From: a virus
Reading direction: 5' to 3' (one strand)
Length of the DNA: 64,000 nucleotides
Virus record (IMG/VR): IMGVR_UViG_3300002231_000336
Shown here: positions 17,215 to 62,072 of the stretch, piece by piece
How positions within the stretch are numbered: the first letter of the stretch is position 1
How the letters are laid out: the number at the start of each line of letters is the position of its first letter
Position numbers and translations under genes: made by a program
The notes under the pieces: generated by a model
Told to the model about the DNA's origin: nothing
The model's input: only the letters and a program-made list of their open reading frames with translations
The model's database searches: none

Positions 17215-18087
17215 CTAGCCACGCAATGTCCCTTTGTCAATAAACATTTGGCGAAGAGCCTCACGGGCATCTTTACTATCACCTGTTTGTACAGCCCTTG
17301 CTACTGCCGAGGAACGACTACCACCTTCACTGTATTGGACACTTGAACCTTCTACGGCTGTCTTGCGCTGCATATTCCCTAGCTCTGCTTGTTTGCGTTG
17401 TAGAGCTTGTTGTGTTTTGGCTGTTTGACCTTGACCTAAATCAAATGCTGCGAGTTTAGCCGCAGTCAATAAACCATCTGGGGCGTTCTTATGCCCACTC
17501 TCCATGTAATGTATGATACGTTGAGTTAGTGGGCTGTTCATATCCCAATCAACAAGCCTGCCACTAGCATCTTGTGCAAATGCTTGAGGGAAGTTCTGCG
17601 CTACAGCAGATAATGCCTGCTGTTTAATAACCGTTTCTTGTTGAGCGCGTTGTTGAGCAGCAAAGCGTTCTTGCAACCTCTTATCAACACCCTCTTCAAT
17701 AAGACGTGCTTTTTCCTGTTCACACCATGCAGCATGTTCAGGATGTTGCTGTTTGTAAGTTTCCAAATCAGCTATGGTGTATTGTGGTTCCTCTGGTTTC
17801 ACCGATTGCTGTATGTTTTTTAACACATCAGACATTTCAGTGATTTTTGTTTCGAGCTTTTCGGTTTTCCGTAGTTGTTCACGATAACGGTTCTCGTATG
17901 GAACACCTTTCTCGTCTACTTCTCCTACTGGCAAATTACCCTCGCCAGAAGAGGGAGGAGTTGCAGGTAAATCTTCACTGATATTAACTTGCTCTTCTGT
18001 GCTTCCTTCTTGTTGAGGGACGTTCTCAACTTTTACGTCCTGGTTTTCAGGAGACGAATCCTGATTTACGTCGTTTTGAGTATCCAT
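17215..18087 (-). CDS. Capsid scaffolding protein
   Basis: Acidic disordered N-terminus, coiled coils, between portal and capsid genes. Confidence 0.7.
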   Translation of the reverse strand: MDTQNDVNQDSSPENQDVKVENVPQQEGSTEEQVNISEDLPATPPSSGEGNLPVGEVDEKGVPYENRYREQLRKTEKLETKITEMSDVLKNIQQSVKPEEPQYTIADLETYKQQHPEHAAWCEQEKARLIEEGVDKRLQERFAAQQRAQQETVIKQQALSAVAQNFPQAFAQDASGRLVDWDMNSPLTQRIIHYMESGHKNAPDGLLTAAKLAAFDLGQGQTAKTQQALQRKQAELGNMQRKTAVEGSSVQYSEGGSRSSAVARAVQTGDSKDAREALRQMFIDKGTLRG

Positions 18088-18109
18088 TGTTTCTCCTTAT
18101 TACTAGTTA

Positions 18110-18427
18110 TTATTCATTATCAAAATCGCCAGCCTGTACGGTTGACGGGTTCTGGAGTGCATGAAGTTGTTCACGCAATTCTTCCAACTCAGCCTCCCAT
18201 TGTTCTTTTAAGTTTGCGACACTTAATAACGCAAGTTTTGTAACCCTAGCTTCACGGAAAGTCTCTTCCGTACAGTTCTGCCAATTCTCATCTAAATCAG
18301 TTATCAAAGAGCGTATTTCTTCTTGCGCTATCTTCCACGCATGTGTTGTTCCTATTTCCTTTGTTAACACTTCTAACTTTGCAATACGTGCTATTATCTC
18401 ATCTTGAGCTGGGGTCTCTTCTTGCAT
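18110..18427 (-). CDS. Hypothetical helical protein
   Basis: 105 aa with AAGGAG RBS; follows the portal gene. Confidence 0.7.
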   Translation of the reverse strand: MQEETPAQDEIIARIAKLEVLTKEIGTTHAWKIAQEEIRSLITDLDENWQNCTEETFREARVTKLALLSVANLKEQWEAELEELREQLHALQNPSTVQAGDFDNE

Positions 18428-18443
18428 TGGGGTCTACTCCTTC

Positions 18444-20510
18444 CTACTTCATTTGTTTAAGTAATTCGATATTATTGTCCATTTGTTGTTGTTCAAGCTC
18501 CTGCTTCTTAGCCAACATTTGTCCTTGTACATCTGGATTAATGCCAAGAGATTTGAGCACCTGTGCACGTTCACCTGGTGTCAAATCCTCTAGCTGTATA
18601 GTTATTGGTTGCACTGGTGGCTTTTGTGGCGATGGTTGAAACGCAACAAATTCTTCCCAGTTCTCAACACCGAGTTCCTGTAGGGCTTGCTTACGAGCCG
18701 CAATAACATTCTCTGGCCCAGCAACACCTAACTGTAACGCCTGATATGCATCTTGTAATACTAACGCAGCCTTTTGCTGTTTCTGTTGTGGATTAGTATT
18801 CTGGTCATTAGCTCGTACATTAATCGTATATTTATTCTGTATCTCTTCCTTAGATAACTTAATGGACTCTTGCCCATTTTCTCCAAAATATATGAATTCG
18901 TATTCATCGTCCCCATACTGACACCATAAGTCCCATATCCAATTAAACAATTCACTAAATTGCTCACGGTACATATCGGCATCTAGTGAAAAAGAATCAC
19001 GATTTTCTTGCACGTGCATCTTTACTTCACCTTCTGTGCGAGGCTGGCGCTTGTTTATTTGTGACTGAAGGTTAAAATCTACCACACCTATAAGTTCCGC
19101 AATTTTACCTTCAAGGATTTGCTGTTCATCTTTGTAAGAATATTCAGCGTTAGTGTCAGTTGCGCGGAATGGGGCGATGACGTCCTTTAGTTGTTGCATA
19201 CCAGAAACAGGTATACCACGACCAAATGAGAACTGTTTGCTTTTGCCTTTAAGTTGCCCGGGTCTATATAGAAACATTGGTGTGTTCCGCATGGTCTGCG
19301 AATCAATACGTTGCATATGTTGGGTATCAATCTCCTTTACAATATCTTCTATAAGCTCAGCTAGAGACCGATGCGAGAACCATCTATCATCTATCAGTTC
19401 ATAAAAGAGTTTAACGAATGGAAACTTGCTAGAATAAAATGGTAGTTCGATTCTGCGAAGTATCGCATCAAAGTCAGGAGAGAGTGTAATAACACATTTC
19501 TCTTCTTTTCCATCTCCATTAATATCATAATAACAATACACTTCCCATATTTTAATGAGACCCTTTTCTTTGAATCTCTGGATACCTTCCCGTTTATCTT
19601 TCGTCATGTCGGTCTTATTATAATCTGAGTCCTTTGATAGCTCTATCGTATCAAATGCTTCCCTGCTCCAGTCTTTGTTGTCCACGTTACTCTCGATGTC
19701 TCTTAATGGCATGAAGAATTCATGGATAATGTATTGACAATCTTGTGGATCTACCTTACTGGTGCTTGGCACATAAAGACGTTCTGGGTCGACTAGCGCT
19801 ACATCAGGGTTATTCTTTATGACATCACGAAATTTGAACTCTACTATCTCTTCTCCTGCAAGTATCTTATCAATGCCTTTAGTCAACTCCTCAGCGTTAT
19901 CAGCTATAACCAGTCTACTAGTGTCAGGGTCCAATCTCATAGCAAAGAATCGGTCTATGACTTCACGGGGCGTATTGGGGTCATAAAGCGTCTGTATGTC
20001 TTGTTCGTCTAATTCCTTAACATCTAAATTAACTGTTCGTTTTTTAATTTTTATATTCCAATATGGCTTAAGTAGATAAAATCCCTTTTCCAATGACTGG
20101 TCTATCGCAATAATAGCTTTCTTCTTAATACCTATAACATTCATCACTAGATGGTCAATGAACTTTTCAATCTTAATTGCGGTCTCTCGTGAACCACCAG
20201 GGGACGGCAACACTGATACTATCGGCCTTACCCCAAATACCCCATTCATTAATGCGGCTTTTAGTTTACGAATCTTAGTGTCAATTATCGGCATACGGAT
20301 ATTAGAGCACCCAACGAATGGCTTGGTCTTTTGTTTCTTGATACGCATTCGCATCCGCTGCCATTTATCTTGCTTATTGCGCCATTTCGAGTTGTCTTCT
20401 TTACAATCAGTATACCAATCCTTTATGGTCGTTACGAGGTCATCACCAGATGGCGAAGACGCTTTCCCACTATAACCAGCCCTATTATCGCTATTAGTCC
20501 TATATTCCAT
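18444..20510 (-). CDS. Portal protein
   Basis: 688 aa after TerL; FPFVKLFYE..DRWFSHRSLAELIEDI, Gln-rich C-terminal barrel as in P22-like portals. Confidence 0.85.
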   Translation of the reverse strand: MEYRTNSDNRAGYSGKASSPSGDDLVTTIKDWYTDCKEDNSKWRNKQDKWQRMRMRIKKQKTKPFVGCSNIRMPIIDTKIRKLKAALMNGVFGVRPIVSVLPSPGGSRETAIKIEKFIDHLVMNVIGIKKKAIIAIDQSLEKGFYLLKPYWNIKIKKRTVNLDVKELDEQDIQTLYDPNTPREVIDRFFAMRLDPDTSRLVIADNAEELTKGIDKILAGEEIVEFKFRDVIKNNPDVALVDPERLYVPSTSKVDPQDCQYIIHEFFMPLRDIESNVDNKDWSREAFDTIELSKDSDYNKTDMTKDKREGIQRFKEKGLIKIWEVYCYYDINGDGKEEKCVITLSPDFDAILRRIELPFYSSKFPFVKLFYELIDDRWFSHRSLAELIEDIVKEIDTQHMQRIDSQTMRNTPMFLYRPGQLKGKSKQFSFGRGIPVSGMQQLKDVIAPFRATDTNAEYSYKDEQQILEGKIAELIGVVDFNLQSQINKRQPRTEGEVKMHVQENRDSFSLDADMYREQFSELFNWIWDLWCQYGDDEYEFIYFGENGQESIKLSKEEIQNKYTINVRANDQNTNPQQKQQKAALVLQDAYQALQLGVAGPENVIAARKQALQELGVENWEEFVAFQPSPQKPPVQPITIQLEDLTPGERAQVLKSLGINPDVQGQMLAKKQELEQQQMDNNIELLKQMK

Positions 20511-20523
20511 ATTTATCTCCTAA

Positions 20524-22008
20524 TTAGTAACCATATCCAAAATCGCCCCAGTCTTCATCTCCTGTATCACGGTCAACTGGTTGCCCGTATCTGTCCACTT
20601 CTTCAACAACCATATCTTCTAGGTCGGGTTGTAATAACTGTTCCGCATATGCCATACAATCTACAATATCATCATGACGGCTTGAGCCAATAGATAGTAA
20701 CTCATCTCTTGCAATGCCATGGTGGCTACCTATGATGTATCGTCCCTGCTCAAATAATGGCTGTAATGCCGCAATCACACGCCTTGTCTTGTTTCGCAAC
20801 ATAGCGCCACTGCCACTAGTAAATACATTTGTCAATTCCGCAACTGGTGGATGAACATTCAATCTTTCACATTCATTTATAAAAGAGTTAAAAAAGCCCT
20901 TCTCAACTCCTTTGTTAGGTATCCCAAGAGAAGTTATCCGATTTTTATTCTTCCCCCATAGATTCAACACCTGATGCATGTAAGTATTAATTGTCTCCCG
21001 TGTATGCACTACATCAAGCAACCAACGACGATTCTGCGCATCTATCCCTATAAGACATGCGACCTTCGCATCTGCCTTCTCATCTTCACTATATGCTGGG
21101 TCTAACGTAATTACACATGAAAGATTCTCTGGTAGCTCGTCTACGGTCTTCCATGTACGAATCATCTCTTGTTTTATCGGCGCACGCTCATTAGCCGTTG
21201 GGTCATTCATATATTCAGTTGAGAAGAAATATGAGCCAATATCGTGTTTCTGCTCCTGTAACCTATTATGCGACCATAATTCAGGCCATAATTCCTCACC
21301 AGCCTTTTCAACCCCAAACCTATAAGCCTTATACTTTTTCTTCTTCCAACCGTTATCTTTCTCAAAATACTCGTTAATTAAGCAAAGATGGGTAAGAATC
21401 GTCCCAATCCATATAAATTGGCCATTAGGGGTAAGTGAGTTAAAACAGGCTTTGAATATCCAGGTTTCTAACTTTCTTCGTCTATCAGGTGTTGCAACGC
21501 TCTCTTCAGTCTCAATATCGTCCAGCACTATTAAATCCGGCCTATAACCACGAATCTGCCCTTCAGCGCCCCTAGCCTTTATCTCAGCACCGTTCTTTAA
21601 TATAATATTACTTTCAGTCCACTTACCTTTCCCGACCTGATTACCAAATATCAACTTTAACAGCTTATTATTCTCAATCTCAAACTTTATCGTGCGTAAA
21701 AACTCAATGGCTTTATCCTCAGATGCACTAATAATCAACACTTTCTTCTTCTCAAGCATCAAAACACTGTAGAGCGGGTAAAATACACTGCAAATGTAAC
21801 TTTTAGCGAACCCCCTTGGCGCTGCAACGAGCATTTTCCGCTCTGAGAGCAACATTTCATAGATTTCACAGTGAAATTCCGGCATTTTGCATGTCAGATG
21901 ATGCTCAAGCGTGTCAGTGACGAACCGGATCATCCCTAACTTCTTATCACTCCAGGCTCGTATAACATTAAAACGCTTCTCACGCTCCTCATTGCTTATA
22001 AAGGTCAT
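20524..22008 (-). CDS. terL: Terminase large subunit
   Basis: APRGFAKS Walker A, RGYRPDLIVLDDIE Walker B, TLDPA and HDDIVDCMAY nuclease motifs. Confidence 0.95.
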   Translation of the reverse strand: MTFISNEEREKRFNVIRAWSDKKLGMIRFVTDTLEHHLTCKMPEFHCEIYEMLLSERKMLVAAPRGFAKSYICSVFYPLYSVLMLEKKKVLIISASEDKAIEFLRTIKFEIENNKLLKLIFGNQVGKGKWTESNIILKNGAEIKARGAEGQIRGYRPDLIVLDDIETEESVATPDRRRKLETWIFKACFNSLTPNGQFIWIGTILTHLCLINEYFEKDNGWKKKKYKAYRFGVEKAGEELWPELWSHNRLQEQKHDIGSYFFSTEYMNDPTANERAPIKQEMIRTWKTVDELPENLSCVITLDPAYSEDEKADAKVACLIGIDAQNRRWLLDVVHTRETINTYMHQVLNLWGKNKNRITSLGIPNKGVEKGFFNSFINECERLNVHPPVAELTNVFTSGSGAMLRNKTRRVIAALQPLFEQGRYIIGSHHGIARDELLSIGSSRHDDIVDCMAYAEQLLQPDLEDMVVEEVDRYGQPVDRDTGDEDWGDFGYGY

Positions 22009-22370
22009 TTTGTCACCACTTTCGAGGCGATCTTAGCCTTTGCGTCCCTCTTAACCCTCGGTTTCTTTATAACGCTCTGCAACGCAGCATAAATATCCAT
22101 GCAGGCTCGGTTCAACTGCTCATGGTCAAATACAAATATATACCCATCCCCATCATAAATATCACTATAGCGCAATGCACGCTCCGTAAGCACTCCTTCG
22201 ATGACCTCATGGAACAGGGTCTGCAACACATCCTCATCATCCAGGGCCTCATTTATCGTCAACACCTTGTTCGCCATGTCAAACTGTCCGGCATCTTCGA
22301 TAAGCGCCCTCACGACCTTATACGTTCTTCCCGCAATCGGTAGGGTTTTCGGTAACTTCAACGAACACAT
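22005..22370 (-). CDS. Small zincin-like phage protein
   Basis: IAGRTYKV...LTINEAL...QTLFHEVIEGV (HExxH-like motif). Confidence 0.6.
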   Translation of the reverse strand: MCSLKLPKTLPIAGRTYKVVRALIEDAGQFDMANKVLTINEALDDEDVLQTLFHEVIEGVLTERALRYSDIYDGDGYIFVFDHEQLNRACMDIYAALQSVIKKPRVKRDAKAKIASKVVTK

Positions 22371-22374
22371 GGGG

Positions 22375-22935
22375 TTATGTGTACTCTTTCTCGTTCAACT
22401 CATTATTAATAATATCAATAACTTCTTGTTTTGTATCTCGCTCATATTGCTTTCTTTTGCGCCCCGCAACACCATGGTAAATATAATGGCAATTAGCGCA
22501 AAGAGTTACATAACCAATCTTTTTAGTTCTATTAATATGATGTAAATGTAATGCGTGTTTGTTGCCAAAACCACAACACTCACATGACTTATTTCTTAGA
22601 TGTTTTGAAAACTTGTATGCAGCCCTTAAACACTTATAACTACAATATTTGCTTCTATTACCTTTAGTCGTGAACTTAACTCCACAACAAGCACATATAA
22701 TTTCACGAGATTTCGCAGTTAAGCTCTTGCCAGTACATTCTTTACAGCAAAACCTCTGCCTAGATCTACTGGTCTTGTATTTTCTCCCACAATACTCACA
22801 TTCTTTTTCTATTCTTCGTGCGAGACGTTGCCTTTTCTTACATTGCTCGACTTTGTGACTTCTACTACAATACTTTTTGGTACTATGTTTAGTTTCAAAA
22901 ATATTACCACAATATAAACAAGTAACTTTACGCAT
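22375..22935 (-). CDS. HNH endonuclease with multiple zinc-ribbon repeats (homing-type)
   Basis: Repeated CxxC...YCSxxC units; CECC...HLHHI...LCANCHYIYH HNH core. Confidence 0.8.
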   Translation of the reverse strand: MRKVTCLYCGNIFETKHSTKKYCSRSHKVEQCKKRQRLARRIEKECEYCGRKYKTSRSRQRFCCKECTGKSLTAKSREIICACCGVKFTTKGNRSKYCSYKCLRAAYKFSKHLRNKSCECCGFGNKHALHLHHINRTKKIGYVTLCANCHYIYHGVAGRKRKQYERDTKQEVIDIINNELNEKEYT

Positions 22936-23183
22936 CTTCAACCTCCTACTAGGTTTACGGACTAGGCCATCAGTAGGGATGACCAGGGGGGCTACCCTTT
23001 TCGTCCTGTTTCAAATTTTTACAGCGACATAACTTGTTGCCTTACATATATTTAAGACACCCAGTGGGGGTTTTCACTTCCCAACTTACCCCCGCCATAC
23101 ATCTTTTAAAAACCTTTTATAAAGAGGGTAAGAGTAGACCCAGTAAAGGCTTATGCTGCAGCAGCAAACGATACCAGTCTATA

Positions 23184-23199
23184 TGTTTCACGTGAAACA
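23184..23199. promoter_or_regulatory. parS: parS site (ParB/Spo0J centromere), perfect consensus
   Basis: TGTTTCACGTGAAACA, extending to an 18-bp palindrome at 23183-23200. Confidence 0.85.
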
Positions 23200-23204
23200 T
23201 TGGC

Positions 23205-23606
23205 TTAGGCAATCTTGGTAACCTTGGTGTCCTTGTATGACTCGAGCAACTGCTTCTCTTTGTCGTCGTATTTGACATTGACTGTGGTGTTATTGACTTG
23301 CGAGACAAGGCCTTCAATCTTGGCTAGACTGTCTAAAGCATGCAATTGATCCTTGTCGGATACATTGTTATTGTCGACGAACTTTTTATATAACCTCTTT
23401 ATTTCTGCGGGTGTAAGTAATACTTCTTGGAACTTCTTGGATAGTTCATCTTTAATAAGTTTATCTTTAAGTAAATTACAAGCTGTAGATGCAGCGTTCT
23501 TGGGTGTAAATCCGGCTTTTATTGCTGATTGTGTAGCATTCACACTCTGGACATACTCATTTATAAATAACTTGTGTTTGCGTCCTAGCTTTTTGAGTGG
23601 TTTCAC
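23205..23606 (-). CDS. terS: Terminase small subunit
   Basis: KHKLFINEYV..NATQSAIKAGFTPKNAASTACNLLK, the TerS HTH signature. Confidence 0.9.
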   Translation of the reverse strand: MKPLKKLGRKHKLFINEYVQSVNATQSAIKAGFTPKNAASTACNLLKDKLIKDELSKKFQEVLLTPAEIKRLYKKFVDNNNVSDKDQLHALDSLAKIEGLVSQVNNTTVNVKYDDKEKQLLESYKDTKVTKIA

Positions 23607-23797
23607 TGTGTTGTCCTTTGTATTTCATGTAGCAGATGCCTACATGCGATTATGTCTTGGCGTAAGTGCGTATCCACAATATCTTGTATCAATACGTTAT
23701 TGTCGTAAATGTATATGTCTTGGTTATTGTGTCTATGTGATAGTTTGACCCGTGGTATCGTCTCTGGTTTGCACATCAGCGCGTCTTTGATTAACAT
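23603..23797 (-). CDS. Hypothetical protein, first gene of the leftward operon
   Basis: 64 aa, overlaps the terS start by 4 nt. Confidence 0.5.
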   Translation of the reverse strand: MLIKDALMCKPETIPRVKLSHRHNNQDIYIYDNNVLIQDIVDTHLRQDIIACRHLLHEIQRTTQ

Positions 23798-23830
23798 AAT
23801 ATGATTTTTTCTCTTAAAGATTATATATAT

Positions 23831-23858
23831 ATTATAACATATATTTGATAAATGTCAA
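23831..23858 (-). promoter_or_regulatory. Sigma70-type leftward promoter
   Basis: TTGACA-16 nt-TATAAT on the minus strand. Confidence 0.75.
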
Positions 23859-23984
23859 GCTGTAGAGCTAAAATAGTTATAAATAGTCGTTAAAATGCTT
23901 TATTAATTGTTTTAATAAGTGTTTAGATAGTTATGGTTTTATTATGTTTCTGCATATTTTTTATGATATCTGTGCAACAAAGTT

Positions 23985-24061
23985 AGTAACAGTAACACAG
24001 TAACACACCCACTTATATATATCCAAAAACAAAGAGTGTTACTGAAGAATTTTTGTTACTG
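23985..24061. repeat. AGTAAC / GTTACT direct and inverted repeat cluster
   Basis: AGTAAC at 23985, 23991 and 23999; GTGTTACTG at 24036 and TGTTACTG at 24054, in AT-rich intergenic DNA. Confidence 0.7.
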
Positions 24062-24342
24062 AGTTTTTCTGTTTGTTGGAGATGTTGTTTTTTTTAGACA
24101 CGTTTTTAAATGTTTTTTCCCTATAAGCCAGTGAGCTTGCTCACCCCGCTATATATCATACATTGTATGTAATATTGGTACTACATTGTTAATTGCTCTG
24201 TATTTGCGCCGTAACGCCCCTCTAAGGCATTTTATGTTGTTCTGTGTCGGTTATGCTTAATGCCTTTAAAACGGCAATATATGGTTAAAGTTTCTTAGTT
24301 TATCGGGCGATAAAATAAATGTGGAATAGTTGAAAAAAAATA

Positions 24343-24371
24343 TTGACAAACGATTTTGCGTCGGTTATATT
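24343..24371 (+). promoter_or_regulatory. Strong sigma70-type early promoter
   Basis: A-tract, then TTGACA-17 nt-TATATT. Confidence 0.8.
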
Positions 24372-24416
24372 TAGGTATCTTTGAAATAGGTTATTAACTT
24401 TTACAGAGGGGGAAAA

Positions 24417-24596
24417 ATGAAAACATTAAGATATAAACTGACACTAAAACACAAGGGCAAAGCATACGGTGAAATAATGCGCACAGTATCTAATCGCAAA
24501 GCTTGTCGTGATTGGGTGGTTACAATGTCCAGTAATGATATTATCGCTGAAGCGATAGACATAAAAACTGGCAAAGTTATTTATACGTCAAATTGA
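24417..24596 (+). CDS. Early protein 1 (59 aa)
   Basis: GAGGGGG RBS; MKTLRYKLTLKHKGK...IYTSN*. Confidence 0.7.
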   Translation: MKTLRYKLTLKHKGKAYGEIMRTVSNRKACRDWVVTMSSNDIIAEAIDIKTGKVIYTSN

Positions 24597-24598
24597 CA

Positions 24599-24650
24599 AA
24601 CCGAAACCGCCTTCAGGCGGTCTACACGTCATACGTGTACTGATGAGGTT
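24599..24650 (+). ncRNA. Type II hammerhead ribozyme
   Basis: AACC GAAA CCGCC-TTCA-GGCGG TC^ TACACG-TCATA-CGTGTA CTGATGA GGTT. All core nucleotides and three stems are present; GUC cleavage after 24622. Confidence 0.9.
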
Positions 24651-24684
24651 AACAGATTAATAATGATTTACAGAGGGGGATCCA

Positions 24685-24852
24685 ATGAACAATTACAGAG
24701 TAGAAAAAGAACAGGACCATATCAGGGTATCAAAAGACACTAGTTTTTACATTGAAGCTGATACCGTTGAAGAAGTGAAGGAATATCTAACAAGTAAAGG
24801 TATGGAATTCTCACGTTATGGAAAATTTACTAACACGGTATATTACAAGTAA
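24685..24852 (+). CDS. Early protein 2 (55 aa)
   Basis: Same TTTACAGAGGGGGA RBS block as early gene 1. Confidence 0.7.
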   Translation: MNNYRVEKEQDHIRVSKDTSFYIEADTVEEVKEYLTSKGMEFSRYGKFTNTVYYK

Positions 24853-24862
24853 GGGATATAGC

Positions 24863-24961
24863 ATGAGAAAAGTATTAATGTTGTTAGTAGTGATAACTTT
24901 GGTCGTAACGTTTCCGGCGTGGTTACCGGTAATGCTGGCGGTCGTGTTTAATGTAGGGTAA
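24863..24961 (+). CDS. 32-aa hydrophobic membrane peptide
   Basis: MRKVLMLLVVITLVVTFPAWLPVMLAVVFNVG*; AAGGGA RBS. Confidence 0.5.
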   Translation: MRKVLMLLVVITLVVTFPAWLPVMLAVVFNVG

Positions 24962-24978
24962 ACTGAAAGGGGTAAGAG

Positions 24979-25413
24979 ATGAACACACAAACAGTAAAAC
25001 TCAATGATTTAGCGCAATACTTCACAACAGGCAAGAGAGACAATGACGAAATATACTATTTTCTTAACGATGAAGCACCGCAAGTATTACATGACGCAAT
25101 ACATGAAGCACACGGGGATATGCTACCGGATGATTTTATTTATAGCTTGTGTTATGATATTTGTTGTGCATTTGAAGAGCATGAAGAAGTAACAAGCGAG
25201 ACCGCATATGATGTGATGGAGAGTTTGGAGCCAAGTATTTATACAGCAGACCTTACAAAATGGTTAGCAAGTAATAATATGCGCATAGATTATTTAAACG
25301 AAGCCATCGAGATTTACAATATCACAGATGGGTTCCAATTACTCGCAACGGCTCAAATGTGCGAGATTAACGAAAGAGGGAATTTGTTTATTAACTATTT
25401 GCAGAATAACTAA
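24979..25413 (+). CDS. Acidic Ocr-like (DNA-mimic anti-restriction) protein
   Basis: LHDAIH is shared with T7 Ocr; PSIYTADL resembles Ocr PHYYADI; Asp/Glu-rich; early position. Confidence 0.55.
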   Translation: MNTQTVKLNDLAQYFTTGKRDNDEIYYFLNDEAPQVLHDAIHEAHGDMLPDDFIYSLCYDICCAFEEHEEVTSETAYDVMESLEPSIYTADLTKWLASNNMRIDYLNEAIEIYNITDGFQLLATAQMCEINERGNLFINYLQNN

Positions 25414-26317
25414 TAATAAAGGGGTATATCATGGACGATAAAACCTTATGTATTGCGTATGTGTTAATGATCGTATTGATAATAGTGGTACTCTGAAAGG
25501 TTAATATATGAACACTAAAGAAGTACTTTACCCAAACGAACTGCTAACATATGAGTATTTATTCGTAATATGGGAGTTCATGCGGTTGGAGCAGGTTATT
25601 AACGAACTATAGGTAGAAAGATATGACATAATGAAACGGGAATATGAAGAAGCGAATAGGCTTTGCGCTGCATGTAAGCATGAGTGTAAGCAACGCAAAG
25701 GGACAAAGGTTATTTATTGCAGGGATTATAAACGAAAAGAGCCATCAACGAAAGGGGGGGCAAAATGATGGGTGAACCATATGATATTGAGCTAGAGAAG
25801 TTCTTTGAGACAAATGAGCATTGTCTTATGAGAGAATTCGTAGAACTGCCACAGATACAGGAACTGTTTAATGAATACGTAACAGAATGTTATGATGAAC
25901 ATTGTGAACGATATAAGAAGGGGGGACGATATGAACTGGACCCAGGACGGAATATATAGGAAAGAGAACAACAATAATCAATATGCTAATAAGGTGTTAA
26001 TGGATATAAGTGGTACGGTACGTGGAATCGAACAAGCAAAGCAATTGGAAGAGGATTTAATAGAAAAGAATAACCGCGACTCACTAATAAAGGAGGGGTG
26101 AAATGACTAGTAGAGAGAGATTAAATAAGTTCCGGCAATTAGCACATCATATCGCAATGGCTTCGAGCGTACTAGCTTATGATGATATAAGCCGGGAAGA
26201 AATAGACGTGCTGTGTGATGAGCTAAGGGAAAAGCTTTATTATCAGAATGATGTTAAGGTTGGTTTACCGCGACACCGGATTATTAACGGATGTGCATGC
26301 AGAGAGGACATATAGCT

Positions 26318-26791
26318 ATGAGTATAATTGATCATGTTGTTTGGGTGATGAATAGCGTATTAAGCTGGGTAGTTATTGCGCTGTTTATGTTGTTAGTGTT
26401 TTTATTAAGTTGCCGGAAGGCATTGGCTTATAATGAGAAGAAGGTGCTGGAGACGATTATATATGAAGCTGGTGGGGAATCCTTAGAGGGACAAACCTTA
26501 GTGGCCTCTTGTATTGAGAATAGAGCCAGAGAGCGTGAACTTGCACCAGTTGAAGTGGTAACAGAACCATGGCAGTTCAGTTGTTGGAATAAAGGGGCTG
26601 TACATTGGAGATATACAGACGATGAAATGGGAATAGCTAAGAAGGCGTGGGACAATAGAGACAAATACACAGAGCTAGGTATCAATATGTATTGTAGGTA
26701 TGATTGCGAACCATATTGGGCTGATGCTAAAGGAATGCATTTTGTGTGTAGGTTAGGGAACCATAAGTTCTATAGAGAGGAGAGACCATGA
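26318..26791 (+). CDS. Cell-wall hydrolase (SleB / Hydrolase_2 family) with N-terminal membrane anchor
   Basis: TIIYEAGGESLEGQTLVA..IENRA, PWQFSCWN, LGNHKFY. Confidence 0.85.
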   Translation: MSIIDHVVWVMNSVLSWVVIALFMLLVFLLSCRKALAYNEKKVLETIIYEAGGESLEGQTLVASCIENRARERELAPVEVVTEPWQFSCWNKGAVHWRYTDDEMGIAKKAWDNRDKYTELGINMYCRYDCEPYWADAKGMHFVCRLGNHKFYREERP

Positions 26792-27536
26792 GAAAAGGGA
26801 CAAATACACCAGGTGACGCTGAAATGTATGAGGCATGGTTGGCTGATAAGCAGGTACAGGAGGAATTTCTTGAATGGTTAAAGGCTGTACATGAACAAAT
26901 GGAACAAGAGGAGGTGATATGAAGAAGAAAAGGGGAAAAAGTGACAGCGAGGCGATGGTCAATATGATGGAAATATTAGTACGTATATTGGTTAAGCAAC
27001 GTAAAACAATTGAGGTGCTTAATAGGTATATGATAGCACTTAAAAGCCATGTACTGGAGATTGATCAGGAATTTGTAAAACATATGGAGCGTGAACACAA
27101 TATGGTACGGAAGAGCGAGGGTGAACACAACGCTGATATGACGTTTGAAAGAATGATGCGAAAGATGATGGGGGATGGTTATGAATAGTCGAGAGATTGC
27201 AGCGCTAAGTGATGTACAGTTAAAAGAAGTGTATGGTGTGGTATATGAGAAGTTGTTTAACTGGTATGAAAAAAGAGATAATGGGTATGAGTTGACTAAG
27301 AAAGATGAAAAATGTTTAGTAGACTTGTTTAATCTTGAGAGACGATTAGAGCGTGAAGATAAGATAAGAAAGGAGGGTGTAAATAAAGGGCGTATAAACA
27401 CATGTAAAAAGGTATTACCAATTAATACACTAAGGAAACATAGGTTAGGTAAACAAGCCAGAAAAAGAGAATCATTAATCCAACAGGGATTTGTAAACTC
27501 TTATCTGTTAAGAAAAAGGGCTACAACTTTTTTGAC

Positions 27537-27564
27537 TTGACTTGTTTAAGATTTTCTGTATAAT
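27537..27564 (+). promoter_or_regulatory. Sigma70-type promoter for the replication/recombination operon
   Basis: TTGACT-16 nt-TATAAT in an intergenic gap. Confidence 0.6.
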
Positions 27565-27726
27565 GGTTGTTAATTGATAAATTAAATTATTTTCCTAGAG
27601 AGAGATAGAATCCACAAAAATAATATGTTGCATCGAACGTGCCTCGGCCACTAGGGTTTCCAAACCCTTTCTTCTCTCTCTTATTTGGTTTGCCCTAGTG
27701 GTCATTTTAAAAGAAAGGGAGAGGAT

Positions 27727-28335
27727 ATGAGAGAAAAAATTCGCAATATAATTTATGATTGGTGCCTGACGCGGGGCGAACAAGTTTTAGCGCTAGAAGA
27801 ATTTCTTGCTGATAAAGGATATTATGAGGCACCGGCGGCAGCGAAGAACCATAACAACTTTGAAGGTGGGCTAGCCCTACACAGCTGGAATGTGTACAAG
27901 ACGGCAATAGCCATAAAGCATAGTATTTGTAATGGGCTTAGCGGAGAAAGCGTGGTCATTTGTTCCCTGTTCCACGATGCACACAAGGTCTGTGATGTAT
28001 GGGGCAATAAGACATATCTGCCGAACGTACTTAAGAGTGGAGAAACAAGCGAGAAGAAGCCATATGTGGTGAACAAAGAGAAGGTCGCTTCCCTACCGGC
28101 CTATATGAGTGGATTGATTGTTATGAGATTTGTAGAGCTGGCTGATGATGAATACCAGGCTATTATAGGCCATGATGGACAGTATGTAGTAGAGAACAGA
28201 GCGCTAGTGCATAAAGAAGAGCCATTGACGCTGATTCTCCACTGGGCTGATATGTGGAGTGCTAGCCAAATTGAAAGAGCGGACAGTGGCTTTCATAAGT
28301 TGCAGACGGAGGTTCGCCATGGGAAAAGAACATGA
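27727..28335 (+). CDS. HD-domain phosphohydrolase (YhaM-like HD motif, no OB fold)
   Basis: APAAAKNHNNFEGGLALHSWNV, FHDAHK, IIGHDG, HWADM. Confidence 0.85.
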   Translation: MREKIRNIIYDWCLTRGEQVLALEEFLADKGYYEAPAAAKNHNNFEGGLALHSWNVYKTAIAIKHSICNGLSGESVVICSLFHDAHKVCDVWGNKTYLPNVLKSGETSEKKPYVVNKEKVASLPAYMSGLIVMRFVELADDEYQAIIGHDGQYVVENRALVHKEEPLTLILHWADMWSASQIERADSGFHKLQTEVRHGKRT

Positions 28336-31446: not shown

Positions 31447-31520
31447 GGGTACTTAGCTTAGTTGGTTAAAGCACCTCGCTCATAACGAGGAAATCATTGG
31501 TTCAAGTCCAGTAGTACCCA
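31447..31520 (+). tRNA. tRNA with CAT anticodon (elongator Met or Ile2); CCA not encoded
   Basis: GGGTACT/AGTACCC acceptor stem, CCTCG-CTCATAA-CGAGG anticodon arm, TTCAAGT T loop. Confidence 0.92.
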
Positions 31521-62056: not shown

Positions 62057-62072
62057 TGTTTCACGTGAAACA
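62057..62072. promoter_or_regulatory. parS: parS site (copy 2)
   Basis: TGTTTCACGTGAAACA. Confidence 0.85.

Follow-up and report, generated by a model that had tools for sequence, protein, structure and literature searches.

An exact chromosomal-type parS site at the terS-terL junction of an uncultured SU10-like phage, and its recurrence in unrelated phages

Results

Organization of the terS-terL locus

The window, i.e. the whole stretch of 64,000 nt that was analysed, carries terS, terL and the portal gene of an uncultured phage in one leftward operon. The features around its terminase genes are the following.

23831-23858, minus strand: sigma-70-type promoter (TTGACA, 16-nt spacer, TG, TATAAT), a consensus match only
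23603-23797, minus strand: orf64, first gene of the leftward operon, no family hit
23205-23606, minus strand: terS, small terminase subunit, 133 aa (phrog_51, E=6.8e-14; Pfam Terminase_2, E=3.4e-14)
23045-23098, minus strand: G-run/C-run block ending in TAAATATATG, ~90 nt downstream of parS, delimited by alignment of the spacers
22375-22941, minus strand: HNH-endonuclease-like gene, 188 aa, between parS and terL (phrog_1271, E=1.5e-12)
22005-22370, minus strand: orf121, weak phrog_1233 match only
20524-22008, minus strand: terL, large terminase subunit, 494 aa (phrog_38, E=7.4e-87)
18444-20510, minus strand: SU10-type portal protein (phrog_1216; Pfam SU10_portal, E=1.1e-32)
62057-62072, no strand assigned: repeat of parS in the second genome unit, not independent of the site at 23184-23199

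Along the minus strand the order is promoter, orf64, terS, parS, ~240 nt of non-coding DNA, the HNH-like gene, orf121, terL and portal, and the SU10-type capsid and adaptor genes come after the portal gene. The parS site lies 1.2 kb upstream of terL and ~640 nt downstream of the perfect match to a sigma-70-type promoter, inside the operon. Judged from its sequence, this putative promoter would drive orf64 and terS and read through parS. A homologue of the HNH-like gene also follows terS in L129, one of the relatives described below.

Between the two operons of the region lies a divergent non-coding stretch of ~600 nt, which is the switch point of the GC skew. At 23984-24065 it contains three direct GTAACA repeats and two inverted TGTTAC copies. 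This repeat region, ~0.8 kb from parS, could act as an operator or as an origin of replication.

A single consensus parS site per genome unit

The exact parS 16-mer TGTTTCACGTGAAACA occupies 23184-23199 and forms the core of an 18-bp palindrome (23183-23200) that starts 4-5 nt past the terS stop codon (23207-23205), in the ~260-nt non-coding gap between terS and the HNH-like gene (22941->22375). As a 16-bp palindrome, it fits the chromosomal-type consensus TGTTNCACGTGAAACA at every position. The scan for further parS-like sites with up to 3 mismatches returned none in the window. The initial annotation had described an exact 16-mer within an 18-bp palindrome, just past the terS stop, in non-coding DNA and once per genome unit, and had equated it with the chromosomal parS consensus; the coordinates, the exact match at 23184-23199 and the mismatch scan agree with this description.

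The site reappears at 62057 because the window is a 2.3-unit concatemer of a genome of ~38.88 kb; the phage contig to which it belongs measures 88,956 bp. Positions 1-25127 correspond to 38882-64000 with 99.97% identity, eight single-base deletions apart, and the copy number of parS is one per ~38.88-kb (38.9-kb) unit. The eight deletions (first-copy positions 2175, 2282, 4204, 5965, 11100, 11340, 11481 and 12332) lie mostly outside long homopolymers. They are probably consensus errors, and they may frameshift structural genes in one copy.

From the base composition (GC 0.39), an exact match is expected ~3.8e-10 times per position and ~1.5e-5 times per genome. The occurrence of parS is far beyond chance, and the earlier judgement that a random match would be very unlikely is borne out by these figures. 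The site was also found in short reads: in a microbial-mat metagenome run, a contig of 456 nt assembled from such reads spans 22889-23344 with zero differences. Since this contig agrees at every base, parS is not an error of long-read assembly. The microbial-mat run is the only one found to contain the window phage, and it may be the source sample.

A perfect palindrome right after a stop codon might also be a structural nucleic-acid element at the end of terS, such as a terminator, an RNase site or a DNA cruciform. However, the RNA fold at the palindrome is indistinguishable from that of shuffled sequence (z=-0.27), its stem is AT-rich, a T-tract is absent and no terminator was called. The missing T-tract and the fold score indicate that the palindrome is not a terminator, and a structure of any of these kinds would not need this exact sequence in the unrelated phages described below. 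We consider a structural role very improbable.

Gene content of the window phage

The window phage had been described as encoding no ParA, ParB or integrase, and at the level of HMMs this holds: none of the three was detected in the 68 ORFs scanned with Pfam and PHROG models, ParB_N and CbiA included, with all unlisted Pfam matches at E>3e-4. The Pfam and PHROG searches likewise detected no lysogeny genes among the window ORFs. Elsewhere in the genome there are genes for a Sak4-like annealing protein, an ERCC4 nuclease, an AAA_25 primase/helicase-like protein and Lar, together with a metallophosphoesterase, a cell-wall hydrolase and glycosyltransferases. The phage, which has a genome of 38.9 kb, is lytic-looking and uncultured.

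Neither DnaA boxes (21 vs 23 expected) nor Spo0A boxes (TGTCGAA; 1 vs 5.65 expected) are enriched in the window. The parS site is an orphan, with no parAB on the same replicon and no enrichment of DnaA boxes. In positions 1-40000, the sole Rfam match at the gathering threshold is a tRNA-Met (CAT) at 31447-31520, and at this threshold no hammerhead ribozyme family was reported there.

parS in relatives of the SU10-like terL family

No DNA match to positions 18000-28000 was found among GenBank phages by megablast. The nearest cultured terL is less than 30% identical at the protein level, and the best terL relative overall is 66% identical. IMG/VR, JGI metagenomes and assemblies yielded 135 unique SU10-like terL loci. 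Those with the terL nearest to that of the window, L122 and L123, break off at this gene or close to it and are of limited use. The labels of MAG bins that contain relatives were considered as a guide to the host, and were rejected as unreliable because they contradict each other (Clostridia, Paceibacterota and Planctomycetia).

With up to 2 mismatches allowed, a parS-like site was found in only one locus of the family besides the window, L124, and this site is the exact 16-mer. It lies at 5397-5412 of L124, at the same terS-terL junction as in the window; 82 nt separate it from the terS stop and 208 nt from terL. The two phages are considerably diverged, with identities of 72% for the major capsid protein (MCP), 60% for the portal, 54% for terL and 38% for terS, and they fall in one clade of seven rows in the terL tree (SH-aLRT 99). 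When the two spacers are aligned, the 16-mer matches at every base, the bases on either side of it differ (window A/T, L124 G/G), and the remainder is scrambled except for one block. The chance of an exact 16-mer in a ~305-nt spacer is ~1e-7. In its early region (698-1717), L124 has genes for a Gad1-family (anti-Gabija) protein and for a radical-SAM protein.

In the same clade, L123, L128 and L129 lack parS even when 4 mismatches are allowed, and their sequences show no palindrome at this position. The terS of L128 and L129 is 36% identical to that of the window, so that the terS of L124 (38%) is no closer to it than theirs. All other unique loci of the family, ~96 of which have at least 500 nt upstream of terL, also lack parS at up to 2 mismatches. 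The placement in the tree and these absences imply either one gain and one loss of parS or two gains. Given its absence from the sisters in the clade and from all remaining loci of the family, parS is an accessory that these phages can do without and not a core element. The expectation that related phages carry parS at the same locus is thus answered in two ways, as the site is exact in L124 and absent from L123, L128, L129 and the rest of the family.

That the 16-mer alone has been kept at the same position in the diverged L124 argues for selection by a conserved reader, e.g. host ParB. Comparison of the sequences indicates that parS is maintained by selection, not by chance.

Exact parS sites across IMG/VR

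The exact parS 16-mer occurs in at least 119 IMG/VR contigs, whereas 2 contain the reversed palindrome and 39 a centre-swapped palindrome. Among the matches listed, 26 of the 119 parS contigs have multiple copies (2-5), whereas the centre-swapped control is single-site in 39/39.

When the ORFs around parS were clustered and annotated, the largest cluster of neighbouring genes was that of phi29-like phages (protein-primed PolB, the ATPase Gp16 and Phi29_MCP), so that the scan recovers known biology. Many of the phi29-like parS contigs have 2-4 exact sites, and these phages have no terS. Examples with 2-4 parS each are L008, L022, L107, L072, L066, L048, L071, L095, L083 and L076, and some of the phi29-like sites lie inside the polymerase gene. 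These uncultured contigs extend the precedent of phi29 and Spo0J. In four further contigs (L010, L036, L099 and L108) a rolling-circle Rep (REP_ORF2-G2P) lies within ~250 nt of parS; such Rep-bearing contigs may represent another type of element that uses host parS.

An orphan parS upstream of terL in a marine clade

The second largest group of parS neighbours is a terL family in which the median distance between parS and the gene is 136 nt. It belongs to a marine clade of at least 600 IMG/VR contigs (here loci L288-L367), whose terL is 54-62% identical to those of the pelagiphages HTVC023P and HTVC027P. Seventy marine loci have at least 200 nt upstream of terL. In 55 of them the exact 16-mer precedes the gene by 107-152 nt, as in L288 (763-778), L306 and L296, and two have single-mismatch variants. 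In at least three further loci parS is at -1058 from terL, with an inserted gene between. Across 44 distinct marine sequences, the 16 parS positions are ~100% conserved, as compared with ~72% in the flanks. Judged by eye, the marine parS lies directly upstream of sigma-70-like hexamers that precede terL.

Five near-complete marine genomes have one parS each, and no ParB_N, CbiA or integrase was found in these five. Some members of the clade cleanly lack exactly the parS module, and no parS was found at up to 3 mismatches in stretches of ~6.4 kb around terL of the cultured pelagiphages HTVC027P and HTVC023P and of 023Pt_psg01 and DSL-LC04. A second conserved palindrome, TGCCTAAT-ATTAGGCA, follows directly after the marine parS (779-796 in L288, and equivalent positions in other members).

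The same orphan arrangement of parS recurs in unrelated phages. We found no description of a host-type parS in these phage groups in the literature that could be searched, which was limited.

These data also bear on the possibility that parS is a chance match or a neutral remnant of captured host DNA. The genome has a single copy, parS is absent from most relatives, and very many stretches of DNA were scanned, so that a few chance 16-mers are expected overall. However, the identical 16-mer recurs at the syntenic site of L124 between scrambled flanks, no host-like sequence flanks parS, and the site is enriched over two control palindromes and almost invariant in the marine sequences. An origin of this kind seems extremely unlikely to us.

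The G/C-run block and the contig ends upstream of terL

The one block of the spacer that is shared by the window and L124 is the G-run/C-run block (5508-5562 in L124). Together with a TATATG-like motif, it is found downstream of terS in all five clade members that have sequence there, with or without parS, and these include L123, L128 and L129. Judged from this conservation, the G/C-run block is a better candidate than parS for a packaging, terminus or late-promoter signal of the family. The parS site is an add-on between terS and the block, distinct from that conserved signal.

In both terL families (loci L128-L287 and L288-L367), contig ends accumulate just upstream of terL, within ~0.7-1.4 kb of the gene. 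In the nearest 700-nt bin, ends upstream outnumber those downstream of terL by 40 to 17 in the SU10-like family and by 28 to 8 in the marine clade. This excess suggests a physical genome end or a terminal repeat close to parS.

Such a location raises the question of whether the palindrome could be bound by a phage protein, i.e. TerS at a pac-type site or an HTH protein that has escaped recognition, in which case the identity with parS would be incidental or a form of mimicry. The site is situated 4-5 nt past terS in the terS-terL spacer, the usual place of pac and cos signals; the marine parS is likewise just upstream of terL, and in both families the contig ends gather there. HMM searches may also miss an unrecognised DNA-binding protein of the phage. 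HNH genes beside terminases, as in the window, are described as typical of cos-type packaging (PMC3592412). Against binding by a phage protein, relatives with a homologous terS (36-38% identical) do without the palindrome yet possess the G/C-run block, the conservation ends exactly at the borders of the 16-bp parS, and the same exact 16-mer is present with unrelated packaging systems, including the phi29-like phages that have no terS. Convergence on all 16 bases of the bacterial consensus would also be improbable for a protein of the phage. Recognition by a phage protein therefore seems quite unlikely.

Discussion

Host ParB as the probable reader of the phage parS

The constraint acts on the exact 16 bases that ParB reads, in phages whose packaging systems are unrelated, and the simplest reader is therefore host ParB. 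We regard this as probable on the grounds of sequence. In the proposed mechanism, which assumes a host with a canonical ParB, dimers of the Spo0J type would recognise the phage parS during infection. Having bound CTP at the site, ParB is predicted to form closed clamps that spread along the adjoining phage DNA. The loaded ParB would then engage its chromosomal partners, ParA and/or SMC.

Borrowing of the host partition machinery had been proposed for this locus at the outset, with segregation, titration of ParB or SMC mimicry among the functions that it might serve. The proposal gains from the fact that the parS is real, present in a single copy, selected and of consensus sequence, in a phage with no par genes of its own; it has to be qualified in that the site is optional and that such borrowing is not new in kind.

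Possible benefits of ParB loading

The likeliest benefit would be that unintegrated phage genomes are retained and partitioned in slow-growing, dividing or dormant hosts, in a carrier or pseudolysogenic state. Retention or partition of unintegrated genomes has a direct precedent in phi29 and its use of Spo0J, and by this analogy it is the benefit that we would favour. Provided that host ParB is the reader, segregation or persistence would be the leading purpose, although short of an even chance; control or organisation of the late and packaging region would be a somewhat lesser possibility, on a par with diversion of ParB and SMC or takeover of the host.

The second of these purposes deserves separate consideration as an explanation of its own. 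Host ParB would load on parS for a local purpose, either as a roadblock or silencer of late transcription that is relieved when ParB is titrated on replicated phage DNA, or for an SMC-aided organisation of packaging. The placement of parS at the start of the packaging and structural operon is convergent between two unrelated families. In the window, parS is located inside the operon, past the sigma-70 promoter match, and ~90 nt upstream of a conserved promoter- or terminus-like block, and the marine site directly precedes the sigma-70-like hexamers. The excess of contig ends upstream of terL points in the same direction. The repeated placement beside terminase genes could reflect a role linked to packaging, since for partition alone the position of parS should not matter. 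However, parS is dispensable in sister lineages, and the shared location may only mark where insertions are tolerated. Long intergenic regions are scarce in phages. We know of no experimental precedent for a chromosomal ParB that controls a late operon of a phage. A purely local role thus appears unlikely, and retention of unintegrated genomes through host ParB remains our preferred reading.

A broader proposition can be put forward tentatively. A single orphan parS at the head of the packaging or late operon, near a genome end, is possibly a device that has become widespread, by convergence, among lytic phages of aquatic bacteria that do not sporulate. Host ParB-CTP clamps, possibly with SMC, would be loaded through it, either to set the timing or arrangement of late expression and packaging or to retain unintegrated genomes in hosts that divide slowly. 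It would be distinct from the spore entrapment of phi29. The arrangement is seen in the SU10-like pair of the window mat phage and L124, and in the abundant marine clade related to HTVC023P.

ParB-parS is a near-universal bacterial system for chromosome segregation and SMC loading. To our knowledge, its hijacking through an orphan parS has been documented for phi29 and its relatives only, for spore entrapment. If the present reading is correct, a selected parS in an unrelated lytic phage would make the borrowing of host ParB a general phage strategy, and the arrangement in the marine clade and the enrichment of parS in viral contigs point the same way. Outside sporulating hosts, the candidate purposes are persistence without lysogeny, timing of late genes, organisation of packaging and sabotage of host segregation. 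The site also offers a clue to the host, which should have a canonical ParB. The parS of the window appears to belong to a wider phenomenon that has so far been little described.

Comparison with known systems

In most bacteria the chromosomal parS sites lie near oriC, and one site can nucleate a ParB complex. The window site is the same 16-bp palindrome, but it resides on a phage, beside neither parAB nor an identified origin, and has no cognate ParB in cis.

The plasmid prophages P1 and N15 bring ParA and ParB of their own and use centromere sequences other than parS. As in these phages, a centromere is present on the genome of the window phage and could serve episomal inheritance. Unlike them, the window phage has no parA-parB operon beside parS and no partition or lysogeny genes.

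With pac and cos sites the window parS shares its position beside terS and terL and near a probable genome end. It differs from them in that relatives sharing the terS family have no equivalent of it, and the separate G/C-run block fits such a signal better.

The closest parallel is phi29, a virulent phage of Bacillus with five parS sites that are bound by host Spo0J and by which its genome is segregated into the prespore (PMC2731898, citing Meijer et al. 2005). Like phi29, the window phage has a chromosomal-type parS and no partition or integration genes of its own. In contrast to the five sites of phi29, it has one per 38.9-kb unit; instead of protein-primed replication and Gp16, it has an SU10-like capsid and portal and terS/terL packaging; and its parS is located at the terS-terL junction. 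Moreover, Spo0A boxes, which in the phi29 type of exploitation suppress the lytic cycle, are not enriched, and its host is not known to sporulate. With one site, no enrichment of Spo0A boxes and an unrelated type of phage, a sporulation link of the phi29 type is not supported here. The principle is known from phi29, and the window presents a variant of it: a single site next to terS in an SU10-like mat phage with no signature of sporulation.
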